Shown piece after piece: positions 36,523 to 56,144 of a stretch of 64,000 bases of DNA. Source of the stretch: Actinomycetota bacterium. Its GTDB lineage: Bacteria; Actinomycetota; Acidimicrobiia; Acidimicrobiales; Ilumatobacteraceae. The stretch covers positions 3,652 to 67,651 of the forward strand of contig JBCDAK010000001.1 in NCBI GenBank assembly GCA_039185545.1, given 5' to 3'. Below the pieces are notes generated by a model. That model saw nothing but the letters and a program-made list of their open reading frames with translations. It made no database searches and was not told where the DNA came from. The first letter of the stretch is position 1. The number at the start of each line of letters is the position of its first letter. The position numbers and the translations under genes are program-made.

Positions 36523-36600
36523 GGTCGTTGCTCCCTCCACGGCTGCGGCTGCATGGTCGGGTCGCAGTCCCGATTCGGCCGCCCATCCGCGTATCGGTCG

Positions 36601-36823: not shown

Positions 36824-37822
36824 ATGAGCGACGTCACGGTCGTCGTCCCGACGTACAACCGCGTCGATCGACTGCGCCGGGTGATCGACTCACTCGAAGC
36901 CCAGGCCGTCGGCCCGTCCGAGGTGTCGAACGACGTCTCGTTCGAGGTCGTGGTGGTGTCCGACGGGTCCACCGACGGCACCCACGACTACCTGCGCGAC
37001 ACCGAGTTCTCGGTCACGGTGCGGTGGTTCACCCAGGAGAACGCCGGACCCGCCCACGCGCGGAACCGAGGCATCGACGAGGCGCGCGGCGAACTCGTGC
37101 TGTTCGTCGACGACGACTTCGTGCCCGCTGACGATCTCGTCGCCACGCACGTGGCGGCGCACGAGCGACTCGGCGACCGCGTGGTCGTGATCGGTCCGAT
37201 GCTCGACCCACCCGATTTCGAGTTCAGCCCGTGGACCGCCTGGGAGCAGTCGATGCTGCGCAAGCAGTACGACGCGATGACCGAGGGTCTGTGGCCGGCG
37301 ACGGCGCGCCAGTTCTACACCGCCAACGCCTCGGTCCGCACCGAACACCTCCGCGCCGCCGGCGGGTTCGACCCGTCGTTCCACCGCATGGAGGACATCG
37401 AACTCGGCTACCGACTCGAGGAGCTCGGCCTCGAGTTCCACTTCGAGCCGGACGCCCGCGGCTTCCATTACGCCGCCCGCTCGTACGCGTCGTGGCTCGA
37501 CATCGCCGCTGCGTACGGCCGCAACGACATCGTGTTCGGCCGCCAACCCGGTCGGGACAACTGGCTCGACCTCGTGGTCGGCGGGTTCTGGCGGCGCAAC
37601 CCGGTCCTGCAGATCCTGCTGCACGGCACGGTGCGGTCGACGAAGCTGGCGAACGCACTCGCGGCGATCGTCGAGCGGACCGTCGAGCCGGCCGATCGTG
37701 TCTCGCGCCGCCTCTCGCGCGGTCTCCTCAGCTGCATGTACAACACCGCGTACTATCGCGGGATGGCTGCGGAACTCGGCGGGTCCCGTACGTTCTTCCG
37801 GGAGTCCTGGGCGCGGCGATGA
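36824..37822 (+). CDS. Glycosyltransferase family 2
   Basis: VVVPTYNR, VVSDGSTDGT, NAGPAHARNRG, FVDDD, GGFD, EDIELGYR. Confidence 0.92.
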   Translation: MSDVTVVVPTYNRVDRLRRVIDSLEAQAVGPSEVSNDVSFEVVVVSDGSTDGTHDYLRDTEFSVTVRWFTQENAGPAHARNRGIDEARGELVLFVDDDFVPADDLVATHVAAHERLGDRVVVIGPMLDPPDFEFSPWTAWEQSMLRKQYDAMTEGLWPATARQFYTANASVRTEHLRAAGGFDPSFHRMEDIELGYRLEELGLEFHFEPDARGFHYAARSYASWLDIAAAYGRNDIVFGRQPGRDNWLDLVVGGFWRRNPVLQILLHGTVRSTKLANALAAIVERTVEPADRVSRRLSRGLLSCMYNTAYYRGMAAELGGSRTFFRESWARR

Positions 37823-40173
37823 GCCGCTCGTACGAGTTCGCCTTCGTGGTCGAGCAGGTGCTCGGACACATCACGCACGGCGACAACCTCCGCCAGCACG
37901 TCGAACGCGGCGGCGTCCGGCCGCACTGGGTCCTGCCGGGGTACGACGTCGAGGGCGTCGCCGCCAAGATCCCGGTCTACAACTCGAACTGGACCGTCCG
38001 GTCCGGTGTCACCGCCCGCCGGGAACTGCGCGCCATCGACAAGGCGCAGCGTCTCGACGCCGTCTTCTTCCACACGCAGACCACCGCGATCATGGCCGCC
38101 GACTGGGTGCGCCGCCGTCCGAGTGTGGTGTCCGTCGACGCGACGCCGTCGCAGTACGACGAACTCGGGCCGTTCTACGAACACGACGTCGGACCCGCGG
38201 CCGTCGAGAAGGCCAAGGCGGCCGGGATGCGCGCCGTTCTCGACTCGGCCGACCACGTCGTGGCGTGGAGCCGCTGGGCGAAGGACAGCCTCGTCGCCGA
38301 CTACGGCGTCGCGTCGTCGAAGGTGAGCGTCGTGCCGCCCGGCGTGTCGGTCGACTCGTTCGCCGTCGACCGACCCGAGCCCGGCGACGGTCCGGTGAAG
38401 GTGCTGTTCGTCGGCGGTGACCTCGAGCGAAAGGGCGGGAACCTGCTCATCGAGGCGTGCCGTCGCCTCGGTCCGGCAGTCGAGCTGCACGTCGTGACCC
38501 GCGACGAGGCCGACCCCGGTCCGGGCCTCTTCGTGCACCGAGGGCTCACGCCCAACAGTCCCGAGCTCCTGGCGCTGTACCGGGACTGCGAGGTGTTCGC
38601 GCTGCCGACCTACGGCGACTGTCTCCCGATGGTGTTGTCCGAGGCCGGCGCCGCATCGATGGCCACCGTGTCCACCGAGGTCGCCGGGATCCCCGAGATC
38701 GTGGTCGACGGCGAGACGGGATCCGTGGTGCCGGTCGGCGACGTCGACGCACTCGAGGCCGCCCTCCGGCGCCTCGTCGACGACCCCGACGTGCGTTCTC
38801 GACTCGGCCGGGCAGCACATCGACACGTCTCCGCCCGGTACGACACCGCCGCGAACACCGACCGGCTCGTCGAGATCATGAAGGCCGTCGCCGACGGTCG
38901 CCGCATCGATGGCGACGCGGTCGACGGGACCGGGATCGACGAGACACCGTCGTCGGGGGTCGCGAGGCGACCGGGTGCACGCAGCTCGTCCCCCGAGTCT
39001 CCGACCGCCGATGCCGCCCGCCGTGACTCCGTCGAGCTGGAGCCCGCCTCCGTCGGTGTCGGCATCGTCGGCGGCGGTTTCGTGGCCGACTACTACGCCA
39101 GCACGATCCCGGGCCATCCCGAACTCCGCCTCGTCGGGGTCGCCGACGCGGTCGACGCCCATCGAGATCGCTACGCGGACCACCACGGAGTCCGCGCCTT
39201 CGCCTCGGTCGACGAGCTGCTCTCGTCCGACGACATCGACATCGTCGTCAACCTCACCAACCCGCGCAGTCACGTCGAGATCTCCGAGGCGGCGCTGCGC
39301 GCCGGCAAGCACGTCTACACCGAGAAGCCGCTGGCGCTCGACGTCGACGAGGCACGCCGGTTGGTCGAGTTGTCCGAGGAGCTCGGACTCGAGATCTCGT
39401 CGGCGCCGTGCAGCCTGCTCGGCGAGACGGCACAGACCATCTGGAAGGCGCTGCGGCGGGGGGTCGTCGGCGACGTCCGGCTCGTCTACGCCGAGATGGA
39501 CGAGGGTCTCGTGCACCGGATGCCCTTCTCGGGATGGGCGAGCGAGGCGGGTGCGCCGTGGCCGTACCGCGACGAGTTCGAGTTGGGGACCGTCATCGAG
39601 CACGCCGGGTACGTGGTCACGTGGCTCCCGGCCATGTTCGGCTCGGCCGTCTCCGTCAGCGGCATCGCCGACTGCCTCATCTCCGACAAGGCGGGAGTCG
39701 CGACCGACGGGACCGACTTCTCCATCGGCGTCATCAGGTTCGAGTCGGGCGTGGTCGCGCGCGTCACGTGCAGCCTCATCGCGTCGCACGACCACTCGCT
39801 GCGGATCTTCGGCGACGACGGCGAGCTGCGGACCGAGGACACCTGGTTCTACGGCTCCAAGGTGCAGCGTCGCCGATCGGTGAACCTCCTCAACCGGCGG
39901 CACCAGTGGCTGCCGTGGAGGACCGTCAAACACGTCGGTGTGCCCGCGGAGTACGACTACCGGGGCACCCAGCAGATGGACTTCGCCCGCGGCGTGTCCG
40001 ACCTCGCTCGGTCGATCGCCGCAGGAGTCCGGCCTCGGCTGTCCGGCCGCTACTGCCTGCACACGACCGAGATCGTGCTGGCGCTCGACCGGGCGTTGCG
40101 CACGACGACGCACTACGAGATGACCACCGAGGCGCCGCCGGTCGACCCGATGCCGTGGGCGCTCGACGCGTGA
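37819..40173 (+). CDS. Fusion: GT4 glycosyltransferase + Gfo/Idh/MocA oxidoreductase
   Basis: ATG 37819 overlaps the upstream TGA. GT4 (VLFVGGDLERKGG, FALPTYGDCLPMVLSEAG), a ~50-aa linker, then GIVGGG, VNLTNP, GKHVYTEKPLA. Confidence 0.85.
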   Translation: MSRSYEFAFVVEQVLGHITHGDNLRQHVERGGVRPHWVLPGYDVEGVAAKIPVYNSNWTVRSGVTARRELRAIDKAQRLDAVFFHTQTTAIMAADWVRRRPSVVSVDATPSQYDELGPFYEHDVGPAAVEKAKAAGMRAVLDSADHVVAWSRWAKDSLVADYGVASSKVSVVPPGVSVDSFAVDRPEPGDGPVKVLFVGGDLERKGGNLLIEACRRLGPAVELHVVTRDEADPGPGLFVHRGLTPNSPELLALYRDCEVFALPTYGDCLPMVLSEAGAASMATVSTEVAGIPEIVVDGETGSVVPVGDVDALEAALRRLVDDPDVRSRLGRAAHRHVSARYDTAANTDRLVEIMKAVADGRRIDGDAVDGTGIDETPSSGVARRPGARSSSPESPTADAARRDSVELEPASVGVGIVGGGFVADYYASTIPGHPELRLVGVADAVDAHRDRYADHHGVRAFASVDELLSSDDIDIVVNLTNPRSHVEISEAALRAGKHVYTEKPLALDVDEARRLVELSEELGLEISSAPCSLLGETAQTIWKALRRGVVGDVRLVYAEMDEGLVHRMPFSGWASEAGAPWPYRDEFELGTVIEHAGYVVTWLPAMFGSAVSVSGIADCLISDKAGVATDGTDFSIGVIRFESGVVARVTCSLIASHDHSLRIFGDDGELRTEDTWFYGSKVQRRRSVNLLNRRHQWLPWRTVKHVGVPAEYDYRGTQQMDFARGVSDLARSIAAGVRPRLSGRYCLHTTEIVLALDRALRTTTHYEMTTEAPPVDPMPWALDA

Positions 40174-40192: not shown

Positions 40193-41311
40193 GTGACCGA
40201 ACCGCGTTCGATCACGCCCGGAGCCGCCGTCCGCTGGGGCATCGTCGGCGGGGGGCCGATGGCCGCCGGGTTCGCCGCCGACCTCCGACAGGTCGACGGG
40301 GCCGAGATCGTCGCGGTCACGTCACGCACGGCCGAGTCGGCCATACGTGCCGGCGCACGTCTGCGGATCGATCGGGTGCACCCCGATCTCGACGCATTCG
40401 CGGCCGACGACACCATCGACGTCGCGTACGTGGCGACGCCACACCACACCCACGCCGACATCACGATCGCGCTGCTCGAGGCAGGCGTCGCGGTGGTGTG
40501 CGAGAAGCCGTTCGCGCTCGACGGTGACGAGGCGAGACGCATGGTCGGCGCCGCTCGTGACGCCGGGGTCTTCTGCATGGAGGCGATGTGGACCCGCTTC
40601 CTGCCGGCGATCCGACGGGCCCGCGCCGTCGTGTCGGAGGGTGGCATCGGCGACCTCCTCGAGGTGCACGCCGACTTCAGCGTCAACGTGCCGATCCGCG
40701 AGGGCGACCGACGGTTCGATCCGTCCACGGGAGGCGGTGCGCTGCTCGACCTGGGTGTGTACACCGCAGCGATCGCCGACCTGTTCGCCGGTCCGGTCGA
40801 GTCGGGTGACGACGCGGTCGCTGCGCACGTGGCCATCGGTCCCTCCGGCGTCGACGAGCGAGTCGCCGCGCTCGTCCGACACCAGTCGGGCGCCAGCTCG
40901 GTTCTCGGCGCGTCGATCGTCTCCGAGGGTCCCGGCCGGGCGCTCCTGGTCGGCACGACGGGAACGATCGAACTGCCGGGGCCCGTCTGCGCACCTGACC
41001 GGATGATCCTGCGGCGCCATGGCGGTGCCGTGGTCGCCACCAACGGACGGGGTGGCCTCGCCGGACGCGTGGCGTCGCTTCCCGGCGGGTCACAGCTGAC
41101 CGGAGTCGCTCGGACGGTCCGCCGACGGCTGGGTGCCAGGCGGGTCGAGCGACTTCCGGCGAACGGCAACGGCTACACCCACGAGATCGACGAGGTCCAC
41201 CGGTGTCTGCGCGCCGGACGGACAGAGAGCGACGCGCACGATCTCGACACCACGGTGCGCGTCGCCGACCTCCTCGACCGGATTCGCTGGGCATCGTCGT
41301 CGGAGTCCTGA
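40193..41311 (+). CDS. Gfo/Idh/MocA family oxidoreductase
   Basis: RWGIVGGG, YVATPH..H, VCEKPF, MEAMWTRF.P, GGGALLDLGVY. Confidence 0.92.
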   Translation: MTEPRSITPGAAVRWGIVGGGPMAAGFAADLRQVDGAEIVAVTSRTAESAIRAGARLRIDRVHPDLDAFAADDTIDVAYVATPHHTHADITIALLEAGVAVVCEKPFALDGDEARRMVGAARDAGVFCMEAMWTRFLPAIRRARAVVSEGGIGDLLEVHADFSVNVPIREGDRRFDPSTGGGALLDLGVYTAAIADLFAGPVESGDDAVAAHVAIGPSGVDERVAALVRHQSGASSVLGASIVSEGPGRALLVGTTGTIELPGPVCAPDRMILRRHGGAVVATNGRGGLAGRVASLPGGSQLTGVARTVRRRLGARRVERLPANGNGYTHEIDEVHRCLRAGRTESDAHDLDTTVRVADLLDRIRWASSSES

Positions 41312-41569
41312 CGGCCTCGTGCGGCGCGACCTCGACGGGGGCCACCGGACAGATCGTCACGAGATCGGCACGACGACCGCGGAGAGTCGTCGATACATTT
41401 CGCGGAGCACAGGGGCTCCCCGGACGGTGGGGTCGTGGCTCAAGACGACCTCGGATTCGTCCGACATCAACCGTGGTCGGCGCGTCCGGCGTCGCCGAGA
41501 CGCTCGCCGGTCCGGTCGAGGCGGGCAGACGCCCGAGTCGAGTGGGAACACGAGATCAGGAGACGAGTG

Positions 41570-41812
41570 ATGCGAAGCGATGTGGTCCGAGCGGTCGAGG
41601 AGGTCTGTGGGATCGGAGCAGCCGACCTCGTCGACGACGCCGATCTCGAGACCCTCGGGATCGACTCGCTCGACCTCATCGAGATCGGCATGATCCTCGA
41701 GGAGCAACACGGGATCGCGCTGGCCAGCGAGCAGTTCGAGTCCGTCACCACGTTCGGCGAGACCGTCGCGGTCATCGAACAGCAGAAGGCGGCGCAGGAC
41801 GCCGCGTCGTGA
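41570..41812 (+). CDS. Discrete acyl carrier protein
   Basis: ATG 41570 after an AGGAG RBS; acidic 80 aa with LGIDSLDLIEI. Confidence 0.9.
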   Translation: MRSDVVRAVEEVCGIGAADLVDDADLETLGIDSLDLIEIGMILEEQHGIALASEQFESVTTFGETVAVIEQQKAAQDAAS

Positions 41813-41827
41813 CGTCGGTGCCGTGAG

Positions 41828-43027
41828 ATGACGTCCGCCATCGTCCGCGGCCTCGGAGTGGTCTCCCCCCTGGGGAGCGACCTGAACTCGTTCTCCCGCT
41901 CACTCGTCGACGCCGCCGAGACACGGGCGGTGGTCGCACGCACCACCCGGTACGAGCTGGAGTATCTGGCGTGTCATGCGTCGGGCTTCGAGCCCGCTGA
42001 TCGTTTCGAACGCCACGAGCTCCGTCGCCTCGATCGCGCTCACCTCATGGCGTTCTGGGCCGCCGACGACGCTCTCGCCATGGTGGGTGACGGGCCCGAT
42101 CCCGAGCGGTGCGCCGTGGTGGTCGGCACCGGGTTCGGCGCGGCCGGGTCGCACGAGGCGCAGAGCGAGGCGTGGCGTGACCGGGGTCCGCGAGCGGTCT
42201 CACCCCTCACGATTCCCGTCGTCATGTCGAACTCGATCGCCGCGCATCTCGCCATCCGGCTGGGTTGGACCGGCCCGGCGCTCACCATCGCCACGGCCTG
42301 CGCGTCCGGTGCCGACGCCATCGGCGAGGCGCTGTGGTTGCTGCGCACGGGCCGCGCCGACCGGGTGCTCGCCGGAGGAGTCGACGCGCTCCACGTCGAG
42401 CACGTGGTCACGGCATTCCTCCGGATGGAGGCCATGTCGAGCCGTCTCGACGACCCGGGCTCCGCGTCGCGCCCGTTCGATGCCGACCGCGACGGATTCG
42501 TCATGGGGGAGGGCGCCGGATTCGTGGTCCTCGAGCGTGACGACGGGTCGGTGACCGGTCTCGGCACCGTGTTCGGGTACGGCGTCAACAACGACGCGCA
42601 TCACATCGTCGCCCCGCCCGACGGAGGGGCCGGTGCCGCCGCGTGCGTGCGGGCCGCCCTGGTCGATGCGGGCATCGAGCCGAGCGACATCGCCCACGTC
42701 AACGCACATGGCACGTCGACGTCCCGCAACGACGCGGCCGAGGCGGCCGCTCTCGCCGACGTGTTCGGCCCATCGGCCGTCCCCGTCACCGCCACCAAGG
42801 CCGTCATGGGGCACCTGGTCGGTGGCGCCGGCGCCGTCGAGTGCATCGCTGCCGTCCTCACCGCTCAGAGCGGCGATCTCCCCGGCGTGAGGACTCTGTC
42901 CACGCTCGATCCCGAGATCGACGGCCTCATCGACGTCTCGAGCGACCGTCGCTCGATCGACCCCGGTCCGGCACTGAGCACCTCCTTCGGGTTCGGCGGT
43001 CACAACGCGTGCCTGGTGGTGGGTTGA
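41828..43027 (+). CDS. Beta-ketoacyl-ACP synthase II (FabF-like)
   Basis: TACASG (Cys), HVNAHGTST (His), TKAVMGH (Lys/His), RPFD..RDGFVMGEGAG, SFGFGGHN. Confidence 0.92.
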   Translation: MTSAIVRGLGVVSPLGSDLNSFSRSLVDAAETRAVVARTTRYELEYLACHASGFEPADRFERHELRRLDRAHLMAFWAADDALAMVGDGPDPERCAVVVGTGFGAAGSHEAQSEAWRDRGPRAVSPLTIPVVMSNSIAAHLAIRLGWTGPALTIATACASGADAIGEALWLLRTGRADRVLAGGVDALHVEHVVTAFLRMEAMSSRLDDPGSASRPFDADRDGFVMGEGAGFVVLERDDGSVTGLGTVFGYGVNNDAHHIVAPPDGGAGAAACVRAALVDAGIEPSDIAHVNAHGTSTSRNDAAEAAALADVFGPSAVPVTATKAVMGHLVGGAGAVECIAAVLTAQSGDLPGVRTLSTLDPEIDGLIDVSSDRRSIDPGPALSTSFGFGGHNACLVVG

Positions 43028-43028
43028 C

Positions 43029-46000
43029 GTGAGCTCCCCTCTCACGACCCGGTCGGACCACACGACCGCCGAGACGACCCGTGGCGTCACCGCGACGCAG
43101 GAGTCGATGTGGTTCGACGCTCGCCACGATCCCGATTCGGTGCATCTGCACGTCTCGTTCGCGGTCCGGCTCGACGCTCCCGTCGAGCCGAGTCACGCGG
43201 ACACGGTCATCCGCCATGCGATCGACACGTTCGACGATCTGCGTTCGGTGTTCGTCGACGTCGACGGTCGACCGGAGCGACGAATCCTCCCCGCCGGCGA
43301 CGTCGCAGCATGGCGATGCGACGACATCTCGGCCGACGATCTCGACGACGCGCTGAGGCAGCTCCACTGCGCGCCGTTCGACGTCGAGAACGGTCCGCTC
43401 GTCCGCTTCCAGGGGTATCTCCTCCCCGACGACTCGATGGTGGTCGCGATCGTCGCGCACCACCTCGTCGTCGACCTGTGGACCGTGGGCCTGCTCGGGG
43501 CGTGGCTCGCACAGGCCTACGCGGCCGTTCGACGCAGCGAGCCCATGCCGCCGCTCCGACGGCTCGGTTCGTTCCACCGGCACGTCGAGATCGAGTCGAC
43601 GCGCCTGGGCGGATCCGATCGTGCGGCGGCGCTCGAACACTGGCGCCCACTCGTCGACCACTCCCGGCCCACCACGCTCGTCGACGACGGACTCGTCGTC
43701 GGACCGCGACCCGGACTCGGTGACGTCGTCCCCGTCCGCCTCGATCGCGAGGTCGAGATCGGAATCCGCGACCTCGCCGACCGGCTCGGCACCTCGATTC
43801 GCTCGGTCGTGCTCGCCGCCCTCGACACGGTGCTCCACCGCACACTCGGATCCGACCGCGTCACGGTCATCGAGTCGAAGGCCAATCGAACCGGAGCGAC
43901 GGCCCGCACGCTGGGCTGCTGTCTCAACCAGGTCCTCCGGGTGTCGGAGGCCGAGTCGTCGACCACGGTGGCGCAGCTGATCGGCGAGGTCGATCGACAG
44001 ACCCGCGCCTCCCGACCGCACGACTGGCTCCCGCTGTCGACCCTCATGCACGAGACCGGTCGCCCGACCGGGTCGGTGCCGGCGACCGAGGTCGCGTTCT
44101 CGTGGCAGAAGTCGGTGCGTCTCGTCGATCCGTCGCTCGCCCGCTCGCTCGCGCTGGGTGATCGCTCGCTCGATCGCGATCGTGAGTCGGTCGCCGCGGC
44201 GTCGATGCCGGTGCGCTCGTCGCCGGCTGCGGTGACTCTCATCGGAGCGGGCGACGGCGGTTCCGTCACACTCGCCCTCGAGTACCAGGTGGAGCGCTTC
44301 GCCCGTTCGTCGATCGAACTCCTCGGCGAGCGCCTCGCTCGGGTGCTCCGAGCATCGATCATCGATCCCGACGTACCCGTCGATGATGTCGATCTGATCG
44401 GCTCCGATCAGCGAGAGCGGCAGCGCAGCGAGTTCGGGACCCTCGATTCCACGACCGCGACGTCCACCGTGTCCGATCTCGTCGATGAACGGATGGCTGC
44501 GTCGCCCGACTCGGTCGCCATCCGACATCGCGGGCGTCGGGTCACCTACGCCGAGCTCGGCCGTCGGACCGACCGGATCGCCGAGGTCCTCGCAGCGGTC
44601 GACGGAGACGATCCGATCGGGGTCCTCACCAGCCGGTCCGTCGACATGGTCGCTGCGGTGCTCGCCGTGTGGCGCTCCGGTCGGGGATTCGTCCCGCTCG
44701 ACCCGAGCTACCCCGCGGCGCGTCTCGGCGACATGATCGGCGACGCCGGAGTCAGCTGCGTCGTGGTCGATGCCACCACCGTCGGTGCGGCCGAGCTCGT
44801 CGACGTCCTCGAGCGTCCGAGCCTGACGGTCGTCGACCTCGACGACGTCCCCGACGATCCACCGACAGCGACCGATGCCCTCGACCGGACGGAGCGGGCG
44901 GTGCGTCCGGCGTCGTCGGCACGTCCCGACGGTCTCGCTCACGTCTACTTCACGTCGGGCTCGACCGGTCGCCCGAAGGGTGTCGCCGTCACCCAGGCGA
45001 GCCTCGCCGGATTCCTCCGTTCGATGTGCGAACGGATCGAACTCGACGAGAACGACGTCGTCGCCGCGTCGACGACGCTCTCGTTCGACCCGGCGCTCCT
45101 CGAGCTCGTCGGCACGCTCGTGGTCGGGGGTGAGGTGCTGTTGATCGATCGCGACACCGTCGTCGACCCCGTCCTCTTCGGGCGCGCGCTCGGCGAAGCG
45201 ACCCTGGTGCAGGCGACGCCGACCGTGTACCGCATGCTGATCGAGAACGGCTGGACCGGTCACGATCGACTCGCGATCCTCTGCGGCGGCGAACCGATGA
45301 CACCGCAACTCGCCGCCGACCTGTCGGTTCGGGGAGCGTCGGTCTGGAATCTCTACGGGCCGACCGAGACCACGGTGTGGGCGACCGCCGATCGCGTCGA
45401 GCCCGGACACCGTCGGATCGGGCTCGGTCGACCGCTGCCCGGCGTGTGTCTCCACGTGCTCGACGAGCACTCGCGACCGGTCCCCGACGGCACCATCGGG
45501 GAGCTGTGGATCGGCGGCGACGGCGTCGCGATCGGATATGTCGGCCGGCCCGACCTCACCGCCGAACGCTTCGTCGACGATCCGTTCGTCGGGCGGCAGC
45601 GTCCGATGTACCGCACCGGCGATCTCGTCCGGCACGGACCGGGCGGCGTCCTCGAATTCCACGGCCGCACCGACTCGCAGGTCAAGGTCCGCGGTCACCG
45701 GATCGAGCTGGGCGAGATCGAAGCGGTGCTCGAGTCCCACCGGGCGGTGGTCGAGAGCGTGGCGACCGTGGTCGGTGACGGCGCCGACGCACGGCTCGTC
45801 GCGTTCGTGCGGGGCGAGACCGACCTCGACGCGACCGATCTCCGTCACTTCGCGTCGCGACGTCTTCCCCGGTCGATGCTGCCCGGTTCGATCGCGGTCG
45901 TCGAACGCTTCGCCCGCACGCCGAGCGGGAAGATCGACCGCCGACGTCTGCCGCAGGTCCACCTCGACGTCTCGGCCCCGGAATCGGCATCGGAGTCGGC

Positions 46001-48773
46001 GTCGACGGGCGCGGTCGACCTCGCCGATCCGACGCTGCTCGACGCGACGCTCGCGATCTACCGCGAGGTGCTCGATGCGCCGGAACTCGACGCGGACGCC
46101 GACTTCTTCGATTCCGGAGGTCACTCGCTCGACGCGACGCGCATCATCTCCCGACTCGAGTCCGCGACCGGGCGACGCCTCCCGATCCGCGCCGTGTTCG
46201 ATCACCCGTCTCCGCGCACCCTGGCCGTCGAGGTCGAGCGGACGCCCTCGGCGACGGTCTCCCGCCCCGATCACGGCCCGGCCGATGCGCCCGACCCGTC
46301 GTCGAGCGACGACCACACGACCTCGGGATCACTGACTCCGTCGCAGCGCAGGATGTGGTTCGCCCAGGCCGTCGACCCGTCGTCGACCACCTACAACCTC
46401 GCTGCACAGATCCGCGTGCGAGGTGGGCTGGAACTCGACGAGGTGCGCGCAGCCCTCGCTGCGGTGGTCGCCGATCAGCCGGCTCTGCGGTCGGCGTTCT
46501 CGGTCGACGACGGTGACATCGTCTCGACGGTGCACCCCGACGTGGTCCCCAGGATCGACGTCGTCGACCGTCGCTCCGTCGACGGAGTCGAGGCGCGCAT
46601 CGCCGCCGCGAGGTCGCGGATCGTCGAGCTCGCGCGGGCGCCGTTCGATCTGTCTCGTCCGCCGCTCGTGCGGTTCACCTGCGACGTGATCGACGCCGAC
46701 GACCTCGTGTTCGGCGTCGTGATCCATCACATCATCGCCGACCAGTGGTCGTTCGGGGTCCTGCTCGACGCCGTCGGCGTCGCCGTCGCGCAGCAGCGGG
46801 GTTCGCAGCCGGACAGTGAGAGCGGTGCTGGCGCCGACGGCGAGGTGGCCGACGTCTTCGTGTCGCCGTGGATCGAACGGGTCGAACCTGACGAGATCGA
46901 ACGGCAGATGGAGTACTGGCGTGGCCGGCTCGGCGGACTGTCGTCGCTCGAACTGCCCCTCGCTGCGACATCGCACCGCGAACGTCCGGCGTCCGCGGCA
47001 TCCGACGCGGGCGACGGCGTGCTGCTCGTCTCGCTCGACGACGGACTGCGGTCCGGAATCGACGCCTACGCGGCCGCACGCGGTGCGACCGGGTTCATGG
47101 TCTATGCGTCGACCCTGGCGTTGCTCCTGTCGGAGGTGGCCGGCTCCGACGACATCCCGATCGGGATGCCCATCGCGAACCGGCACCATCTCGACACCGA
47201 ACGGACGATCACCTCGTTGGTGAACACGCTGGTTCTGCGGATCGACACCTCCGGCCGAGTCGAGTTCGACGAGTTGCTGGCGCACGTGCGCGACTGTTCG
47301 CTCGAGGCCTACGACCATCAGGACGTCCCGTTCGACCGCATCGTGGGCGAACTCTCACCCCCGCGGGCCGGAGTGCGATCGCCGTTCTTCCAGGTGTTCC
47401 TCAACGTCCACAACGCCCCCATCGCGCTGCCGAGTCTGAGCGGCGCTCACTTCGACATCCTCCCGGTCGAGCACCGGGCCGTCGACTTCGACCTCTCGCT
47501 CACCATCGATCCCGAACTCACCGGCGTCCTGCGCGTCGAGTTCGACCCCCGACAGGTCACCGGCGACAGCGCGGCCGCCTGGTCGTCACGGTTCATCGAG
47601 ATGCTCCATCGGGTGGTGTCACCCGTCGGGCCGCCAACGATCGCCGAACTGCGTTCGACCGGTGCTGCGCCGATGGTCGCAGCGGGCGAGCTGATCGAAG
47701 TCGACGACCCCGCGGCCGAGGCGGGAACCTCGGTTCCCGCCGGCGGCCCGACCGAGGCTCGCTCCGACCGCGATGAGCGCCGTCGCGAGCTCGAGGGGAC
47801 GCTGGCCCGGATCTGGACCGACGTGCTCGACGTCGACCACGTCGAACTCGACGACGACTTCTTCGACCTCGGCGGCCACTCCCTGCTCGCTGTGCGCATG
47901 TTCGGTGAGATCCACGAGTCGACCGGCCGCCGACCGCCGATCGGGTTGCTGTTCCGCGCCCCCACGATCGCCGGTCTCGCCGCCCTCCTCGACCACGAGG
48001 GCTGGGCGTCGGAGTGGACCTCCATGGTGCGCGTGTCCGACGGCGATGCGACCGGTGTCCCCCTCTTCGTCATCACGCCGTACCTGATCTCGGCACTGAG
48101 CTTCCACGGTTTGGCGCAGGAGCTCGACGGGCGAGTCGTGTACGCCCTCGAGCCGCACGCCGTGGCGGCCGAGTCCGACGGTCGCGCATCGATCTCGCAG
48201 GTGGCCGCCCGCTACGTGAGCGAGATGAAGACGGTGCAGCCGGTCGGTCCGTACGACGTCGTCGGACACTGCGCCGGTGCCTGGGAGGCGCTCGAGGTGG
48301 TCGGCCGTCTCGAGGACCAGGGTGACGAGATCGGGTCGCTGACGGTCGTCGACATCGCTCCACCGGGCGTCGAGCCGCCGCGGCCGTCGCCGATCCGGTA
48401 CGTGCTCAGCCGGCTCCGGCTCTACACCCGGTCGGGTGCGAGCCGGTTGCTCCACGCGGCATGGTGGCGCACCCGAATGCTGCTGCTCGGATGGAGCGCA
48501 CGAGCGGGGTCCGGCGACGACGACACCTCACGTCGCGCCGCCGTCCGGGACGCACACCGGAGATACCGGGGTCGCCAGGTCCGAGCCGACATCCACCTGA
48601 TCCGCAGCGAGGAATGGAGTGGTCTGCCCGACAAGGACTGGCACCTCCGCTGGGCCGATCGGTCGTCGGGATCGCTCACGGTCGACACGGTTCCCGGCTC
48701 GCACGCGCGCCTCCTGCAGGCCGAGTCGCTCGACGACTTCGCCGAGGCGCTCCGGCGACACCTCGACGTCTGA
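43029..48773 (+). CDS. NRPS C-A-PCP-C-PCP-TE (second module lacks A; TE has a Cys nucleophile)
   Basis: C1 HHLVVD; A FTSGSTGRPKG, NLYGPTETT, YRTGD, GRTDSQVKVRGHRIE, SGKIDR; PCP GGHSL x2; C2 HHIIAD; TE GHCAG and GSH. Confidence 0.93.
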   Translation: MSSPLTTRSDHTTAETTRGVTATQESMWFDARHDPDSVHLHVSFAVRLDAPVEPSHADTVIRHAIDTFDDLRSVFVDVDGRPERRILPAGDVAAWRCDDISADDLDDALRQLHCAPFDVENGPLVRFQGYLLPDDSMVVAIVAHHLVVDLWTVGLLGAWLAQAYAAVRRSEPMPPLRRLGSFHRHVEIESTRLGGSDRAAALEHWRPLVDHSRPTTLVDDGLVVGPRPGLGDVVPVRLDREVEIGIRDLADRLGTSIRSVVLAALDTVLHRTLGSDRVTVIESKANRTGATARTLGCCLNQVLRVSEAESSTTVAQLIGEVDRQTRASRPHDWLPLSTLMHETGRPTGSVPATEVAFSWQKSVRLVDPSLARSLALGDRSLDRDRESVAAASMPVRSSPAAVTLIGAGDGGSVTLALEYQVERFARSSIELLGERLARVLRASIIDPDVPVDDVDLIGSDQRERQRSEFGTLDSTTATSTVSDLVDERMAASPDSVAIRHRGRRVTYAELGRRTDRIAEVLAAVDGDDPIGVLTSRSVDMVAAVLAVWRSGRGFVPLDPSYPAARLGDMIGDAGVSCVVVDATTVGAAELVDVLERPSLTVVDLDDVPDDPPTATDALDRTERAVRPASSARPDGLAHVYFTSGSTGRPKGVAVTQASLAGFLRSMCERIELDENDVVAASTTLSFDPALLELVGTLVVGGEVLLIDRDTVVDPVLFGRALGEATLVQATPTVYRMLIENGWTGHDRLAILCGGEPMTPQLAADLSVRGASVWNLYGPTETTVWATADRVEPGHRRIGLGRPLPGVCLHVLDEHSRPVPDGTIGELWIGGDGVAIGYVGRPDLTAERFVDDPFVGRQRPMYRTGDLVRHGPGGVLEFHGRTDSQVKVRGHRIELGEIEAVLESHRAVVESVATVVGDGADARLVAFVRGETDLDATDLRHFASRRLPRSMLPGSIAVVERFARTPSGKIDRRRLPQVHLDVSAPESASESASTGAVDLADPTLLDATLAIYREVLDAPELDADADFFDSGGHSLDATRIISRLESATGRRLPIRAVFDHPSPRTLAVEVERTPSATVSRPDHGPADAPDPSSSDDHTTSGSLTPSQRRMWFAQAVDPSSTTYNLAAQIRVRGGLELDEVRAALAAVVADQPALRSAFSVDDGDIVSTVHPDVVPRIDVVDRRSVDGVEARIAAARSRIVELARAPFDLSRPPLVRFTCDVIDADDLVFGVVIHHIIADQWSFGVLLDAVGVAVAQQRGSQPDSESGAGADGEVADVFVSPWIERVEPDEIERQMEYWRGRLGGLSSLELPLAATSHRERPASAASDAGDGVLLVSLDDGLRSGIDAYAAARGATGFMVYASTLALLLSEVAGSDDIPIGMPIANRHHLDTERTITSLVNTLVLRIDTSGRVEFDELLAHVRDCSLEAYDHQDVPFDRIVGELSPPRAGVRSPFFQVFLNVHNAPIALPSLSGAHFDILPVEHRAVDFDLSLTIDPELTGVLRVEFDPRQVTGDSAAAWSSRFIEMLHRVVSPVGPPTIAELRSTGAAPMVAAGELIEVDDPAAEAGTSVPAGGPTEARSDRDERRRELEGTLARIWTDVLDVDHVELDDDFFDLGGHSLLAVRMFGEIHESTGRRPPIGLLFRAPTIAGLAALLDHEGWASEWTSMVRVSDGDATGVPLFVITPYLISALSFHGLAQELDGRVVYALEPHAVAAESDGRASISQVAARYVSEMKTVQPVGPYDVVGHCAGAWEALEVVGRLEDQGDEIGSLTVVDIAPPGVEPPRPSPIRYVLSRLRLYTRSGASRLLHAAWWRTRMLLLGWSARAGSGDDDTSRRAAVRDAHRRYRGRQVRADIHLIRSEEWSGLPDKDWHLRWADRSSGSLTVDTVPGSHARLLQAESLDDFAEALRRHLDV

Positions 48774-48792
48774 CCGGTCGCGACGACCGGTC
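48772..48792. terminator. 9-bp GC hairpin between convergent genes
   Basis: gaccggtcg-cga-cgaccggtc, with no U-tract. Confidence 0.4.
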
Positions 48793-48799
48793 CGACGGC

Positions 48800-49762
48800 T
48801 CAGCCGATCAGGAGGAAGTGGAACGACGAGTCCTCGGACACGATCGCGTCCGTACCCGTGTCTTCCTCGCCGAAACACCCCACCGGGATGGTGAGGCTGC
48901 CGCCCGTCACCGTGAGCGCAGCGGCGCCGAGCACGCAGGAGCGTCCGGCGTCACCCATGTCGGGGGTCGCGTCCTCGATCGCGGTCAGGAGCACTCGCGG
49001 CTCGAACCCGTCGGGCAGTCCCGAGACCGTCACCTCGTACTCGCCGTCGTCGTCGACGCCGACGGCCACGGCCGAGGAGATCCCCGTCGGGGCGGTGGAG
49101 GAGATGGACGGCGCCGACCCGGTGTCGTCGGTGACGACACCGCTCACGAAGACGCCGTCGCCGGCGACGGCCGACTGGGGGACGTAGTCGGTCTGGGCGT
49201 CGGTCACCGACAGGTACTCGGTCTCGGCATCGGTGATCCGGAGGTACACGTCGTCGTGGTCGTGCGGGCCGTAGAAACCGACGACGTCGATGATCACGTT
49301 GACCGATCCGACGTTGTTGAACACGTCGAACGTTCCCGTGTCGGAGAGAGGCGTGTTGACGCCGTTCGGCGTGGGTGGCTGACCCGGCGCCGGGTTGAGA
49401 CTCGAAGTGCCCGGATTGGCTCCACCGTCCCAGATGGTCAGGAACGTCTGCTCGGTGGCGCCCAGTGCGGTCACGTTGAGCGCGAGAGCGGTGGCCTCGG
49501 TGGGAATCGTGCACTCACCGTTGGTGCCGTGGGCGGTGAAGGTGACCGTTTCGCCGGCGCCGAGTGGACCGCTCTGGGGACCGACGTTGCTCGCCGGGCG
49601 CGTGTCGACCAGACGACACTGCTCGACGGTCGTGAACACCGATCCGGTCTCGGGATCGTCGGCGGAGACGAGCTGGATCGACGTCGCAGCGAACACTCCG
49701 CCGCCGATGACGGCGGCGGCGAGGACCGTGATGAAGGCGACGGGACGCGTTGAGAGCTTCAC
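48800..49762 (-). CDS. Secreted protein with one RxxDTR domain and an uncharacterised C-terminal region
   Basis: C-terminal part of the 865-aa track ORF, starting at GTG 49762. Signal peptide, CRLVDTR, ALNVTA...FLTIW...PGTSSLN...N...PL, VIIDVVG. Confidence 0.75.
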   Translation of the reverse strand: MKLSTRPVAFITVLAAAVIGGGVFAATSIQLVSADDPETGSVFTTVEQCRLVDTRPASNVGPQSGPLGAGETVTFTAHGTNGECTIPTEATALALNVTALGATEQTFLTIWDGGANPGTSSLNPAPGQPPTPNGVNTPLSDTGTFDVFNNVGSVNVIIDVVGFYGPHDHDDVYLRITDAETEYLSVTDAQTDYVPQSAVAGDGVFVSGVVTDDTGSAPSISSTAPTGISSAVAVGVDDDGEYEVTVSGLPDGFEPRVLLTAIEDATPDMGDAGRSCVLGAAALTVTGGSLTIPVGCFGEEDTGTDAIVSEDSSFHFLLIG

Positions 49763-49859
49763 GCCTGGTGAGGGTACTGGTGGCCGTTCGACCTGATCGT
49801 CTGGATCTCGTCTGTTCTCCCGTGCACCGAACCGACGGGGTGGGAGCTGAAGCCTGCTC

Positions 49860-51983
49860 GTGATGCGGCGCTTGTACCGTGACGCGGTGGCGTGGAGATC
49901 GGCGAGTGGGCCCTGGCGCGCGGCGATCCTGCTCGTCGCGATCGCACCCGCGTGCTCGCTGCTGGCCGATCCCGTCGAGCAGGGGGCCGACGATCCGCTG
50001 AGCGGCGGGGCTGATGTTGTCGTGCCGGGCGGGTCCGAACCGGTCGAGCCGTCGACCCGCGGGTCCGGTCGCGTCCAGCTCGCCGCGCGCCACGTCGTCG
50101 GGGAGGGTCGGGCGCTGCTCGCCGACACCGGAGGCGGCCGGATCGTCGTCGCCACCACGAGCCGCCTGCTGACGGTCGAGGGCGACACCGTGGTCGAGAT
50201 CCCGTCGGGTCTCGCCGGCGACGTCCGGTCGGTCGAGCTCACTCCCGACGGATCGGCGGTGGTGGTCGCCGGGGTCGGCGGTGGGGTCGAGGTCTGGCGG
50301 GTCGGCGACGAGCCGGCACTCGTCGCCGGGTTCTCCGACGTCACCCGGGAGTCGAGCGGAGGCACACGAGCTGCGGTCGCCGTCGGCGGTGACCTGCAGC
50401 TCGTCGACACGGCGTCGGGGGCGATCGATGCGTTCTCGATCGGCGAAGGCCGCGACATCATCGCGCTCGATGTCTCGAGTGGAGGATCGGCGGTCGCGGC
50501 GGTCGTCGGTGAGGGCGAGTCGCTGAGCGTGCTCCGCGCCGGGCCGTCGGCCGAGTTCGTCGACACGCCGCTCGGTCTCGACCCGGCCGTCCGCATCGAC
50601 ACCGTCGCGGTCGCCGAGTCGAGTGACCGGCTGGTCGTGGCCCACGGGCGGCTCGACGATCCGTTCGCCGGGCAGCTGTCGATCTGGGACGGTGACACGG
50701 CGGCCGAGCCCCAGGTCGTCGACCTCCCGGCCGCCGGATCGGCGAGTCGATGGGCGGTCACCGGCGACGGAACCGTGTGGTGGCTCGACGACACGGTTCT
50801 GCGGTCGATCGATCCCGCCGGGGTCGCGGTCGAGGTGCCGGTCGAGATCGAGGGTGAGAGTCGTGCCGTCGTGCCGGGTCCGGGCAGCCGAGTGGCGCTC
50901 GTCTCCGACTCCGGCGACGTCCAGGTCGTCGAGTCCACCTCGACCGTCGGTCGGTCCACGCTGGCCGACGCCGACCCGCTCTTCGTGTCCGGCCTTGGCG
51001 ATCGTCTCGCCATCGTCGACCTCGACGGGACCGTCCACGATCTCGACGTGGCGACCGGCGTCGCCGTTCGGATCGACCGCTTCGTCGCCGCCCCCGTCAC
51101 GTCGGTCGGAACGTCGGCCACGGGCGAGCTCGCGGTCGCGGCCACCGACGGCACGGTCACCGTCACGTCGGTCGCCGATCCGTTCGCGGGCCGGTCGCTC
51201 CTCCATCCCGAGGGTCGGGTCACCGCGGTCGAGTTCTCGCCCGACGGCGGTTCCCTCGTCACCGGGGTCGCCCAGCGTCGCACCGGGACCTCGTTCGACG
51301 ACACGGTCAGTGTGTACGGGCAGGAGCGGTCGGACCGGGTGTTCTCGGTCTGGGGCGAGGCCGAGAGCAACCCGCTCTGCACCTTCTTCGACAGCATCGT
51401 TCGCTACACGAACGACGGGTCGCGGATCATCGCGACGTCGCACGACTTCACGGCGTCGGTCCTCGATGCCGCGACCGGCGATCTGATCCACCAGTTCCCC
51501 GCCGAGGGCGGCACGATCCTCGACGTCGCGGTCAGCGAGGACGACGCGCAGCTGATCACGTCGGCCGACGGCGGACGGGTGGCGATCTGGGATCTCGACA
51601 CCTTCGAGCTCGTCGGCGAGTTCGCCGCGCCGCCGGGCGGGCTGTGGTCGATCGCGTTGCTCCCGGGCGGCGCGACGATGATCGGCAGCGATCTCTCGGG
51701 GCGGCTCGTCGAGGTCGACACGACGTCGGGCGCCGTACTCCGGACGTTCGCCAGCTCGACGGCGCGTGCGTCGCGATTGTCGCTGTCGACCGACGGTCGT
51801 TTCCTCGCGTCGGGAGCCGAGTCCGGGATCGTGCGCGTCTGGGACGTGGCGTCGGGTGAGCTCGCGGCCGAGGCGACCGGCCACGTGGGCGCCGTTCCGG
51901 CCGTGAGCTTCTCGTCCGACTCGACGTCGCTCGTGACCGGCTCGGTCGATGGCACGGTCGTGGTCTGGGACCTCGTCGGCTGA
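49860..51983 (+). CDS. WD40/beta-propeller repeat lipoprotein
   Basis: Lipobox-like IAPAC; WD-like repeats (GRVAIWD, GIVRVWD, GHVGAVPAVSFSSDSTSLVTGSVDGTVVVWD). Confidence 0.82.
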   Translation: MMRRLYRDAVAWRSASGPWRAAILLVAIAPACSLLADPVEQGADDPLSGGADVVVPGGSEPVEPSTRGSGRVQLAARHVVGEGRALLADTGGGRIVVATTSRLLTVEGDTVVEIPSGLAGDVRSVELTPDGSAVVVAGVGGGVEVWRVGDEPALVAGFSDVTRESSGGTRAAVAVGGDLQLVDTASGAIDAFSIGEGRDIIALDVSSGGSAVAAVVGEGESLSVLRAGPSAEFVDTPLGLDPAVRIDTVAVAESSDRLVVAHGRLDDPFAGQLSIWDGDTAAEPQVVDLPAAGSASRWAVTGDGTVWWLDDTVLRSIDPAGVAVEVPVEIEGESRAVVPGPGSRVALVSDSGDVQVVESTSTVGRSTLADADPLFVSGLGDRLAIVDLDGTVHDLDVATGVAVRIDRFVAAPVTSVGTSATGELAVAATDGTVTVTSVADPFAGRSLLHPEGRVTAVEFSPDGGSLVTGVAQRRTGTSFDDTVSVYGQERSDRVFSVWGEAESNPLCTFFDSIVRYTNDGSRIIATSHDFTASVLDAATGDLIHQFPAEGGTILDVAVSEDDAQLITSADGGRVAIWDLDTFELVGEFAAPPGGLWSIALLPGGATMIGSDLSGRLVEVDTTSGAVLRTFASSTARASRLSLSTDGRFLASGAESGIVRVWDVASGELAAEATGHVGAVPAVSFSSDSTSLVTGSVDGTVVVWDLVG

Positions 51984-52109: not shown

Positions 52110-54077
52110 TCAGTCGATGAGCCCTCGGCTGCGGAGCTCGGCGATCACGATGTCGGCCGCCTCTTCGGCGGTCATGGTCGAGGTGTCGAGAGCGACCTCG
52201 GGTGACTCGGGCAGCTCGTAGGGCGAGTCGATCCCGGTGAAGTTCGCCAGCTCGCCGCGCCGGGCCTTGGCGTACAGGCCCTTCGGATCGCGGCTCTCCG
52301 CGACGTCGAGCGGGGCGTGGACGTGCACCTCGAGGAACTCGCCGTCCTCCACTCGCTCGCGTGCGAGCCGACGCTCGGCGCGGAACGGGGAGATGAACGA
52401 GGCGAGCACCACGAGCCCGGCGTCGACCATGAGGCCGGCCACCTCGCTGACTCGACGGATGTTCTCGACCCGATCGACGTCGGTGAATCCGAGGTCGCGG
52501 TTGAGTCCGTGACGCACGTTGTCGCCGTCGAGCAGGTACGTGCGGACGCCCGCCGCGTGCAGCTTCTGTTCGACGATGTTGGCGACGGTCGACTTGCCCG
52601 CCCCCGACAGCCCGGTGAACCAGACGACACCCGGCCGGTGGCCTTGGCGCTCGATGCGGGTCTGCTTGTCGACCTGCACGTCCTGCCAATGGATGTTCTG
52701 TGAGCGGCGCAGCGCGAAGTGGAGCAGTCCGGCTCCCACCGTGTTCTGGGTGATCTTGTCGATGATGATGAATCCACCGGTGTCGCGGTTGCCGGGCTGG
52801 CCGGCGTTGCGTTCACCGATCGCGAGTCCCGGATACGGGTCGAACGGGATCGGTCGATCGAGGCTCAGGTTGCACACGCCGATCTCATTGAGCTCGAGTG
52901 TGTCTGCGGCGAGGTGTTCGAGGTTGTTGACGTCGACCCGATACTTCGGATTGGCGATCGTGACGCCGACGGTCCGGGTGCCGATCTTCATGAGGTACGG
53001 GCGCCCGGGGAGCATCGCGTCCTCGTGCATCCAGACGACGTGTGCCTCGAATTGGTCCGCCACCTCGGCGGGCGCATCGGCCGTGCACAGCAGGTCACCG
53101 CGCGAGGCGTCGATCTCGTCGGCGAGCGTGATCGTGACCGACTGGCCGGCCATCGCGACGTCGAGGTCGCCGTCCATCGTGACGATCCGGTCGACCGTCG
53201 ACGTGGTGCCGGACGGGAGCACACGGATCGGATCGCCCGGCTGGACGGTGCCGCCGACGATCTGACCGGAGAACCCCCGGAAGTCGAGGTTCGGCCGGTT
53301 GACCCACTGCACGGGCATGCGGAACGACTGGCTCGGTCGCTCGTCGTCGACCTCGACGGTCTCGAGGAATCCCATCAGCGTCGGGCCGTGGTACCAGTGC
53401 GTGTGGGCGCTCGGCTCGGTGACGTTGTCGCCCTTGAGCGCCGAGAGCGGGATGAACGTGATGTCGCCCGGGTCGGCGCCGAGGCCGATCCGCTCGGCGA
53501 ACTCGAGGTACTCCTCGCGGATCGAGTCGTAGACGTCCTTCGAGTAGTCGACGAGGTCCATCTTGTTGATGGCGATGACGACCTTCCGGAGCCCGAGCAG
53601 CGACACGAGGAAGCTGTGGCGCCGCGTCTGCGTGAGCACACCCTTGCGGGCGTCGACCAAGATCACCGCGACGTCGGCCGTGGACGCACCGGTGACCATG
53701 TTGCGCGTGTACTGCTCGTGGCCCGGTGTGTCGGCCACGATGAACTTGCGCTTCTCGGTGGTGAAGAACCGGTAGGCGACGTCGATCGTGATGCCCTGCT
53801 CGCGCTCCGCAGAGAGTCCGTCGAGGAGCAGTGCGAAGTCGAGGTCGCCGCCCTGGGTGCCCACCTTGGCCGAGTCGACCTCGAGCGCTGCGAGGTGGTC
53901 CTCGAAGACGAGATGCGACTCGTAGAGCAGTCGGCCGATGAGTGTGCTCTTGCCGTCGTCGACCGAGCCGCACGTGATGAACCGCAGCATCGACTTGTTC
54001 TGGTTCGCCTCGAGATACTCCGCGACGTCGGCCGCGATGTCCTCGGCCGGGGCGTTGACGGTGTCGGTGGCAGCCAT
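52110..54077 (-). CDS. cysNC: Bifunctional sulfate adenylyltransferase subunit 1 / APS kinase
   Basis: ATG 54077. [42 protein letters not shown]; kinase [30 protein letters not shown]. Confidence 0.96.
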
Positions 54078-56118: not shown

Positions 56119-56144
56119 CGTCGTGCCTCGTCTCGTGAGCGGGG

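Follow-up and report, generated by a model that had tools for sequence, protein, structure and literature searches.

A three-gene carrier protein, ketosynthase and peptide synthetase cassette of marine Acidimicrobiia with a predicted N-acyl-Gly-Gly product

We analysed a stretch of 64,000 nucleotides of an Ilumatobacteraceae bacterium (contig JBCDAK010000001.1; the whole stretch is called the window here) that contains adjacent genes for an acyl carrier protein (ACP), a ketosynthase (KS) and a nonribosomal peptide synthetase (NRPS) whose second module has no adenylation (A) domain. With moderate confidence we propose that these genes are a self-contained thiotemplate cassette of marine Acidimicrobiia which makes N-acyl-Gly-Gly, its one A domain serving both peptidyl carrier proteins (PCPs). 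The cassette represents an uncharacterised, coherent family and a variant of known NRPS logic: on the most economical reading a lipo-(Gly)2 assembly, with a cysteine thioesterase (TE) tied to Gly, embedded in polysaccharide loci. An original prediction for this DNA had described the same architecture and had taken it to need a substrate loaded in trans, possibly by a second NRPS and polyketide synthase (PKS) group elsewhere in the window. The observation stood, for the architecture as well as for the A code; the interpretation was supported only in part, and its trans-loading link between the two groups was not supported.

Results

Architecture of the cassette

The genes for the ACP (41570-41812, 80 aa; Pfam PP-binding 1.5e-12), the KS (41828-43027, 399 aa; Pfam ketoacyl-synt N 7e-39 and C 2.9e-30) and the NRPS (43029-48773, 1914 aa) lie on the plus strand, with gaps of 15 nt from ACP to KS and of 1 nt from the KS stop to the NRPS start. 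All three have the coding-type bias in third-position GC (GC3) expected in a window of about 70% GC. The domain order of the NRPS, C-A-PCP-C-PCP-TE, comes from the Pfam matches (Condensation twice, 6.9e-103; AMP-binding, 1.3e-72; PP-binding twice, 1.3e-28; Thioesterase, 3.2e-21), from the translation and from an alignment with six relatives. A discrete ACP and an intact KS of type II in front of such a protein had been predicted, and every part was found in its place on the plus strand.

The N-terminal condensation domain C1 (43080-44408, plus strand; motif HHLVVDLW, catalytic His H145) is followed by the sole A domain (44466-45983, plus strand), by PCP1 (46035-46244, plus strand; GGHSLDA, with the phosphopantetheine serine S1033 at 46125-46127) and by C2 (46329-47621, plus strand; HHIIADQWS, catalytic His H1234). 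C2 is a canonical LCL-like domain, with Txo1 (1.8e-51), Txo2 (1.1e-50) and the fuscachelin PCP-C structure (3e-45) as PDB matches and TycC6 near them, and the alignment shows its motif kept across the family. At the usual site of an A domain there is then a low-complexity linker (47622-47789, plus strand) without an AMP-binding match, and beyond it PCP2 (47790-47993, plus strand; GGHSLLA, phosphopantetheine S1618 at 47880-47882) and the TE (48060-48758, plus strand). The 57-aa stretch between C2 and PCP2 holds no remnant of an A domain and the single AMP-binding match of the protein lies in module 1, in agreement with the earlier statement that module 2 lacks this domain. The linker is short and variable in all cassette orthologues, which likewise have one A domain for two carrier domains.

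The cassette with its A-less module is neither an assembly artefact nor a product of decay, because the architecture recurs in independently assembled orthologues. Logan contigs from a marine run span 45343-47689 unbroken, from the last part of A through T1 and C2 into the linker, so that linker and C2 are joined in an independent contig as well. Short 'joints' of 20-21 nt in the lay-out of the Logan contigs were disregarded because they are matches of unrelated contigs. The DNA runs in which the region occurs are all marine metagenomes.

A collection of 5.8 billion proteins contains the KS of the window and its formyltransferase-A-PCP protein (described below), on a contig of 91,270 bases. 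A search with the full-length NRPS did not list the protein itself and gave only a 297-aa fragment of a close relative (P0241) and a 2.4-kb contig (L018) of 94-99% identity.

The cassette recurs in independent lineages

The ACP-KS-[C-A-T-C-T-TE] unit, in which T is the carrier domain, is present in at least six further, independent lineages from metagenomes. Its architecture was found at the loci L002, L007, L010/L011, L012 and L013/L014 and for the representative proteins P0248, P0269, P0287 and P0371, and ACP, KS and NRPS are contiguous and tightly spaced in every cassette lineage. A scan of a genome collection gave an 88%-identical orthologue with synteny downstream in an Actinomycetota metagenome-assembled genome (MAG; L001). 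Another Actinomycetota MAG (L002) has an NRPS of 35% identity with identical domain order, and ACP and KS adjacent to it though inverted. Close homologues of neighbouring genes in the window carry Ilumatobacter labels.

An exhaustive search of representatives with C1, whose ranking is driven by the summed scores of mega-synthetases and carries no information on C subtype, yielded four cassette-sized representatives (1868-1898 aa) that share all motifs. A homologue search with the full-length NRPS returned large generic NRPSs of at most 36% identity, with no orthologue visible among them. A metagenome scan with the C1 alignment gave 8 loci, 2 of which are a close relative and its duplicate and the rest multimodule NRPSs without a KS.

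In a search with the KS, a clade at 55-63% identity is set apart from a plateau near 50%, and all inspected members of this clade belong either to a two-module cassette (L007, L010/L011, L012, L013/L014) or to a one-module variant, FAAL-ACP-KS-[C-A-T-TE] (L008/L009).

The one-module variant extends over 8287-15224 of L008 as an acyl-AMP ligase, an ACP, a KS and then C-A(Gly-like)-T-TE(Cys). Its neighbours are phenylacetate-catabolism (paa) genes and a gene for a GGDEF-EAL protein rather than polysaccharide genes.

One Gly-type A domain and two carrier domains

Read against the A4/A5 core motifs, the A code of the window is DPLQLGLVWK, identical to the Gly-like code D-P-L-Q-L-G-L-V-W-(K) that had been read by hand before. 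Four orthologues have DILQLGMVWK or DILQLGLVWK, canonical codes for Gly. A documented Gly code is DILQLGMIWK, and Leu/Met299, Leu/Met322, Ile/Val330 and Trp331 are hallmarks of Gly recognition (PMC12283262). Activation of glycine by the cassette A domain is thus supported by its code and by the orthologues.

Complete relatives suggest what PCP2 would carry. P0385 and P0002/L026 are both C-A-T-C-A-T-TE proteins; the first has a differing A1 (DMLHLGVVCK) and DILQLGMVWK as A2, the second two Gly-like codes (DPIQLGLVWK, then DPVQLGLVWK). The last A domain is DILQLGMVWK both in the two-module L005 and in the three-module L003, and the only one of the one-module L008 is DPIQLGLIWK. Whenever a relative combines the Cys-TE clade with a complete terminal module, the TE is fed by an A domain with a Gly or Gly-like code, and the Ser-TE NRPSs of the same sequence set have other A codes. 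PCP2 would therefore be most simply loaded with Gly by the A domain of its own protein, and the same substrate, Gly, is predicted at PCP1 and PCP2, as expected where one A domain serves both. There are documented cases of A-less modules that a neighbouring A domain serves (PMC11586506). In L002, L007, L010, L012 and L013, no further A domain or PKS was found within ±10 kb of the cassette, and the sole other A domain found in the window belongs to the group named the left arm below.

In L006, a C-A-T-C-A-T-TE(Cys) NRPS of an Acidimicrobiia MAG whose assembly is ridden with frameshifts, T1 and T2 are almost identical over their first ~33 residues (12867-13001 and 16019-16120), which suggests a recent module duplication or gene conversion.

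The ACP and KS derive from acpP-fabF

The ACP carries its phosphopantetheine serine, S33, in the motif GIDSLD and resembles AcpP/AcpM with scores under the NCBIfam cut-offs. Its identity is 42% to a housekeeping AcpP of Acidimicrobiia and 51-63% to other cassette ACPs. The KS has intact catalytic residues (C158/H294/K324/H329), with the Cys-His-His triad, in a FabF fold. Its best NCBIfam model is fabF (TIGR03150) at 361 bits, under the cut-off of 493.75; the gene lies outside a fab operon, and the protein falls short of equivalog-level membership of primary FabF (KAS II). The plateau near 50% in the KS search consists of housekeeping Acidimicrobiia FabF, encoded in a fabD-fabH-fabG-acpP-fabF operon, and in an identity matrix the KS shares 58-73% within the cassette clade against 46-50% with that FabF. 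The motifs lining the pocket differ by clade (ACASG versus ACAAG; PLxIPVVM versus PFLVPMMM), and the ACP-KS gene order of the cassette mirrors housekeeping acpP-fabF. These comparisons identify the KS as a FabF paralogue and indicate that the ACP/KS pair derives from acpP-fabF. The opposite direction of assembly, from NRPS to PKS with the KS extending a peptide, was rejected: the KS is an upstream FabF paralogue, and a TE follows PCP2.

C1 forms residues ~18-460 of the cassette's only NRPS in every lineage, with no peptidyl module upstream. The domain diverges fast (about 30-35% identity within the family) around the motif HH[LIV]xxD[LMI]W[ST]. A six-sequence C1 profile matched LCL domains best among PDB chains (Txo2/Txo1 ~1e-68, fuscachelin, TycC6) and the C domain of AB3403 over its full length (1.7e-50); the classic Cs domains of SrfAA (1e-34), CDA-C1 (2e-31) and RzmA (2e-26) scored lower than both. 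We consider C1 a starter by position and gene context and not a Cs-clade member by sequence, and a starter-versus-LCL classification would probably return it as LCL-like. The acyl donor that had been postulated for an N-terminal C domain fits the conserved unit of ACP, KS and N-terminal C.

A path to N-acyl-Gly-Gly can be drawn from these parts. The dedicated ACP would be malonylated by the cell's FabD, and the FabF paralogue would condense an acyl primer of the primary fatty acid synthase (FAS) with malonyl-ACP in a Claisen reaction to give 3-oxoacyl-ACP. This may be processed further by FabG/Z/I, so that the chain probably enters either as 3-oxoacyl or as FAS-processed acyl. Such a supply step is suggested because the ACP/KS pair has an acpP-fabF origin and the cassette has no other fatty-acid genes. 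The single A domain would activate Gly and, as the comparative data suggest, load it on PCP1 as well as PCP2; C1, by its position and the gene order, would N-acylate Gly-S-PCP1, and C2 would join acyl-Gly to Gly-S-PCP2, giving acyl-Gly-Gly-S-PCP2. Cys1748 of the TE would take over the acyl-Gly-Gly by transthioesterification, and the chain would then be hydrolysed off or, plausibly, transferred to an acceptor. The added FAAL of the L008 variant reinforces the logic of an acyl-ACP delivered to C1.

A cysteine thioesterase with a predicted glycine-ended substrate

The TE has a cysteine nucleophile, which had gone unremarked in the original prediction. Its triad is C1748, in a GHCAG motif of the GxCxG pattern, with D1775 and H1892, and the cysteine is invariant in all clade members examined. 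The closest solved structure is the NocB TE, with whose Ser nucleophile the cassette Cys aligns; ObiF1 and SulM are absent among the structure matches. A GxCxG nucleophile is rare in NRPS TEs and known from ObiF, which forms a beta-lactone, and SulM, which forms a beta-lactam (PMC6668435, PMC11298585). Four-membered-ring chemistry of this kind was excluded for the cassette because the predicted terminus is Gly, which has no beta substituent; nor is the TE ObiF- or SulM-like. Dieckmann (tetramate) release was also rejected, being geometrically implausible after a second Gly.

For the one-module variant L008/L009, Dieckmann-type release to a tetramate is chemically conceivable.

The two arms of the window occur independently

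About 28 kb from the cassette lies the left arm, a pair of genes on the minus strand. One (8829-13649) encodes an F-A-PCP protein, with a formyltransferase-like domain, an A domain split by a luciferase-like monooxygenase (MOx) and a PCP, and the other (2464-8832) a KS-AT-KR-DH-ACP-TE PKS, so that the pair has a release domain (TE) of its own. The left-arm A code is DILQLGMIWK, and the MOx insertion is typical of that code. At least 120 proteins of identical architecture and 40-56% identity make up this F-A-PCP family ('MupA/Atu3671'), with homologues from Ilumatobacter, Acidobacteria, Gemmatimonadota, Burkholderiaceae, Rhodobacterales and Myxococcota. In a variant of the left-arm family (P0443, 1824 aa), a C-terminal thioesterase also has Cys at the nucleophile position (GDCLG).

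The left arm had been suggested to supply the PCP2 substrate, which would link the two arms into one pathway. We compared the contigs of the best 120 F-A-PCP homologues, by size, with 6 cassette contigs. None of these homologues is on a contig that has the length of one of the 6 cassette contigs (21-68 kb), and no cassette-clade KS is on a contig that has the length of a left-arm contig; the latter reach 163, 210, 235 and 475 kb. In five independent contexts, the ±10 kb around the cassette contain no left arm. Two Acidimicrobiia loci (L015, L016) have the F-A-PCP/PKS pair in polysaccharide loci without the cassette, and both arms stand together only on the window's own 91-kb contig.

The cassette thus appears independent of the F-A(MOx)-PCP/PKS pair. 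The proposed link is not supported because each arm occurs without the other and the left arm has its own TE; with the arms occurring apart and complete relatives pointing to Gly from the cassette's own A domain, a need for the left arm as source of the PCP2 substrate is not supported either, and the co-occurrence comparison gave the result that the original prediction had named as its refutation, the right arm occurring without the left. A decarboxylase had been offered as the source of an amine instead. It is conserved with neither arm and was rejected as amine donor. The decarboxylase gene at L003, which stands beside an arginyl-tRNA synthetase gene, is probably housekeeping lysA.

The cassette recurs in polysaccharide loci

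Most constant among the cassette's neighbours on other contigs is a pair encoded on the minus strand of the window, a glycoside hydrolase (GH)-like protein (26668-28614) and a GT4 glycosyltransferase identified by Pfam (25596-26675). The GH-like protein is secreted or lipoprotein-like with a lipobox-like N-terminus; it has no Pfam match and weak PDB matches to a GH51 arabinofuranosidase (2e-05) and a beta-xylosidase (GH39), of clan GH-A. Its true start is probably further downstream because the upstream part of the reading frame overlaps the Wzx gene (28313-30166, plus strand). Homologues of the GH-like protein (48-63% identity) adjoin the cassette in L007, L010, L012, L013 and L014, those of the glycosyltransferase (57-63%) in L007, L010, L012 and L013. 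A polymerase or ligase with a Pfam Wzy_C match (23933-25561, plus strand) has homologues near the cassette in L007, L010 and L013, and L010 adds WecG, Wzz, a tyrosine-kinase-like gene and a hexapeptide acyltransferase.

Further genes of the window are for a Wzx flippase, several glycosyltransferases and an initiating sugar transferase, and its right flank holds a complete set of sulfation genes (52113-55150, 55114-56148 and 58498-59559 on the minus strand; 56682-58448 and 62948-63949 on the plus strand), among whose products are a cysD-like protein (PAPS_reduct), a cysN/cysC fusion (GTPase and APS kinase), a cysQ-like protein of the inositol-phosphatase family, a sulfate-permease-like transporter (CitMHS/TrkA-C) and two sulfotransferases. 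The locus is a large Wzx/Wzy polysaccharide locus whose polysaccharide is probably sulfated. Its backbone set of polysaccharide genes is shared by L010, where it comes with the cassette only, by L016, where it comes with the left arm only, and by the window, where both are present. The three-module Cys-TE/Gly NRPS of L003 has a Wzx-like flippase and a PIG-L de-N-acetylase encoded nearby.

We propose that the cassette is functionally tied to this recurring, Wzx/Wzy-type and probably sulfated polysaccharide locus. A link between NRPS product and glycan is plausible, for instance if the chain bound as a thioester were passed to an amino sugar. An extension of this idea, rather unlikely in our estimate, is that the Cys-TE transfers N-acyl-Gly-Gly to an amine or hydroxyl of the polysaccharide or of a lipid-linked precursor as a lipopeptide anchor or decoration, the two arms being interchangeable accessory modules of this locus type.

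Directly upstream of the ACP gene is a GFO/IDH/MocA gene (40193-41311, plus strand), preceded by a fusion of GT4 and a GFO/IDH/MocA oxidoreductase (37231-40173, plus strand). These sugar oxidoreductases are placed outside the conserved unit because the cassettes of other lineages have different upstream neighbours. Downstream, a minus-strand gene (48800-~49759) for a secreted or membrane-anchored protein without Pfam or NCBIfam match converges on the NRPS gene and occupies an apparent gap of 1.1 kb. No promoter or terminator was found in a scan of 41200-50000, and an Rfam search of the whole window gave no match. Three further genes (31371-33245, plus strand; 33273-34448 and 34567-36660, both minus strand) encode secreted or membrane-anchored proteins without Pfam or NCBIfam matches. 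The second and third of these proteins have a common C-terminal ending, '...HNYTP.K...YTWHWDNI.V', and homologues of the first and third adjoin the cassette or a complete relative in L007, L012 and L026.

Discussion

Several observations weigh against a self-contained N-acyl-Gly-Gly cassette as we propose it. The cassette has no FAAL, AT, KR, DH or ER, so that where the acyl chain comes from, how long it is and how far it is oxidised are guesses, and C1 falls outside the classic Cs clade when its six-sequence profile is compared with PDB chains. The window code has Pro236 where the canonical residue is Ile, a variant common to the window, L002, L008 and P0002. PCP1 and PCP2 are 26-36% similar in the A-less proteins and 35-53% in the complete ones; there is no positive sign of shared recognition here, because the A-less pairs are no more alike. 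The left-arm A domain of the same genome is also Gly-coded, and trans-loading has a precedent in AmbB, an A-T protein that loads a foreign T2 (PMC4357302). L002 and L008 lie outside polysaccharide contexts, and a search for RNA runs containing the region found none.

One alternative is the reading first put forward, in which PCP2 is trans-loaded by the left-arm F-A(MOx)-PCP protein, or C2 or the TE uses the amine from the decarboxylase, the arms forming one pathway. The window does hold both arms in one locus, AmbB does trans-load T2 of AmbE, an A-T1-C-T2-TE protein (PMC4357302), and a Gly-coded A domain in the left arm is chemically compatible with a C2 that accepts Gly. The pattern of occurrence makes this very unlikely nevertheless: the cassette does without the left arm in the five contexts and on all 6 cassette contigs, the left arm is a widespread pair with its own ACP-TE that also occurs without the cassette, and the decarboxylase is conserved with neither. 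Moreover, the left-arm A domain acting in trans would bring no new building block because its code is that of Gly. Alternatively PCP2 could be trans-loaded by an unlinked enzyme (a free-standing A domain, an aminoacyl-tRNA-dependent enzyme or an acyltransferase), perhaps with a substrate other than Gly. Trans A domains complement A-less modules, for example in WS9326A (PMC7539972), and the inspection around most cassettes covered only ±10 kb. With no candidate loader gene conserved near the cassette in any context, a standard LCL domain as C2 and, by A code, Gly on the PCP that feeds the Cys-TE clade in all complete relatives, we regard such a loader as improbable.

It is also conceivable that module 2 does not elongate, PCP2 being skipped or used as a docking or hand-over carrier, and that the product has a single amino acid, an N-acyl-glycine. 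A single-module C-A(Gly)-T-TE(Cys) protein with FAAL-ACP-KS exists in L008/L009 and AB3403 is a similar C-A(Gly)-PCP-TE protein (PMC10510592), yet a chain cannot pass through a C domain to an unloaded carrier. The HHxxxD motif of C2 and the serine of PCP2 are kept across lineages only 35-40% identical overall, which argues for selection on a working second condensation and leaves us giving this version very little credence. The ACP/KS pair, finally, might not feed C1 at all; C1 would take acyl-CoA or another donor and ACP-KS would serve some other step, such as a glycan lipid. The LCL-like rather than Cs-clade character of C1 speaks for this, as does the complete relative P0002 (L026), which has no ACP-KS directly upstream. 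Strict contiguity of ACP-KS-NRPS in every cassette lineage, retention of the pair in L002 despite its inversion and the FAAL placed upstream of the ACP-KS-NRPS order in the L008 variant make it highly improbable.

If true, the proposed cassette is a minimal and evolutionarily fixed example of one A domain with two carriers, and a clean system for multiple loading in cis. It would also define an uncharacterised TE clade in which a Cys nucleophile is paired with a C-terminal Gly, with a chemistry other than beta-lactone or beta-lactam formation. With the cassette recurring in Wzx/Wzy loci of uncultured marine Acidimicrobiia, independently of the F-A(MOx)-PCP/PKS pair, modification or anchoring of surface glycans by thiotemplate enzymes is suggested for this little-studied group. 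Genome mining should treat the two arms as separate modules and not score them as one hybrid cluster.

Comparison with known systems

The closest parallel for the A-less end is AmbB/AmbE of Pseudomonas aeruginosa AMB, where AmbE, like the cassette, has a T1-C-T2-TE end in which T2 lacks an A domain and has to be loaded by one from outside its module (PMC4357302). The A-less C-T-TE module is found in both, whereas the AMB loader is a co-clustered second NRPS, AmbB, and the cassette has no conserved second protein with an A domain. Unlike AmbE, the cassette has an N-terminal C domain, an ACP and a KS, and a Cys as TE nucleophile. AB3403 of Acinetobacter baumannii (C-A-PCP-TE, PDB 4ZXH/4ZXI) shares with it an N-terminal C domain whose donor arrives on a separate carrier protein, and its A domain has been seen with glycine bound (PMC10510592). 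It differs in having one module, a Ser TE and a donor loaded by a free-standing adenylating enzyme instead of a KS.

The cysteine nucleophile in GxCxG is common to the cassette TE, ObiF and SulM. ObiF and SulM form four-membered rings through a beta-hydroxy or beta-amino residue, a reaction that the C-terminal Gly predicted for the cassette cannot undergo, and the Gln-Cys-Asn motif of SulM contrasts with His-Cys-Ala in the cassette TE (PMC11298585).

For acyl supply, the cassette can be set beside lipoinitiation systems. Iturin is an AL-ACP-KS case of lipoinitiation. In the CDA fab operon and the AL-ACP-KS of mycosubtilin, an ACP and a ketosynthase of the cluster prepare the acyl chain for an N-terminal C domain (PMC11586506). 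By comparison, the cassette contains just one ACP and one FabF paralogue, with no FabH, FAAL, aminotransferase or oxidases, and its C1 lies outside the classic Cs clade, unlike the lipoinitiation starters.

The supply of several carriers by one A domain is itself not new. In yersiniabactin HMWP2, one A domain supplies more than one carrier. Bleomycin, viomycin, thalassospiramide and rhodamide are further systems in which one A domain serves more than one carrier (PMC11586506), as proposed for the cassette. The cassette differs from these in that the whole synthetase has one A domain, fixed in a small conserved unit within polysaccharide loci.

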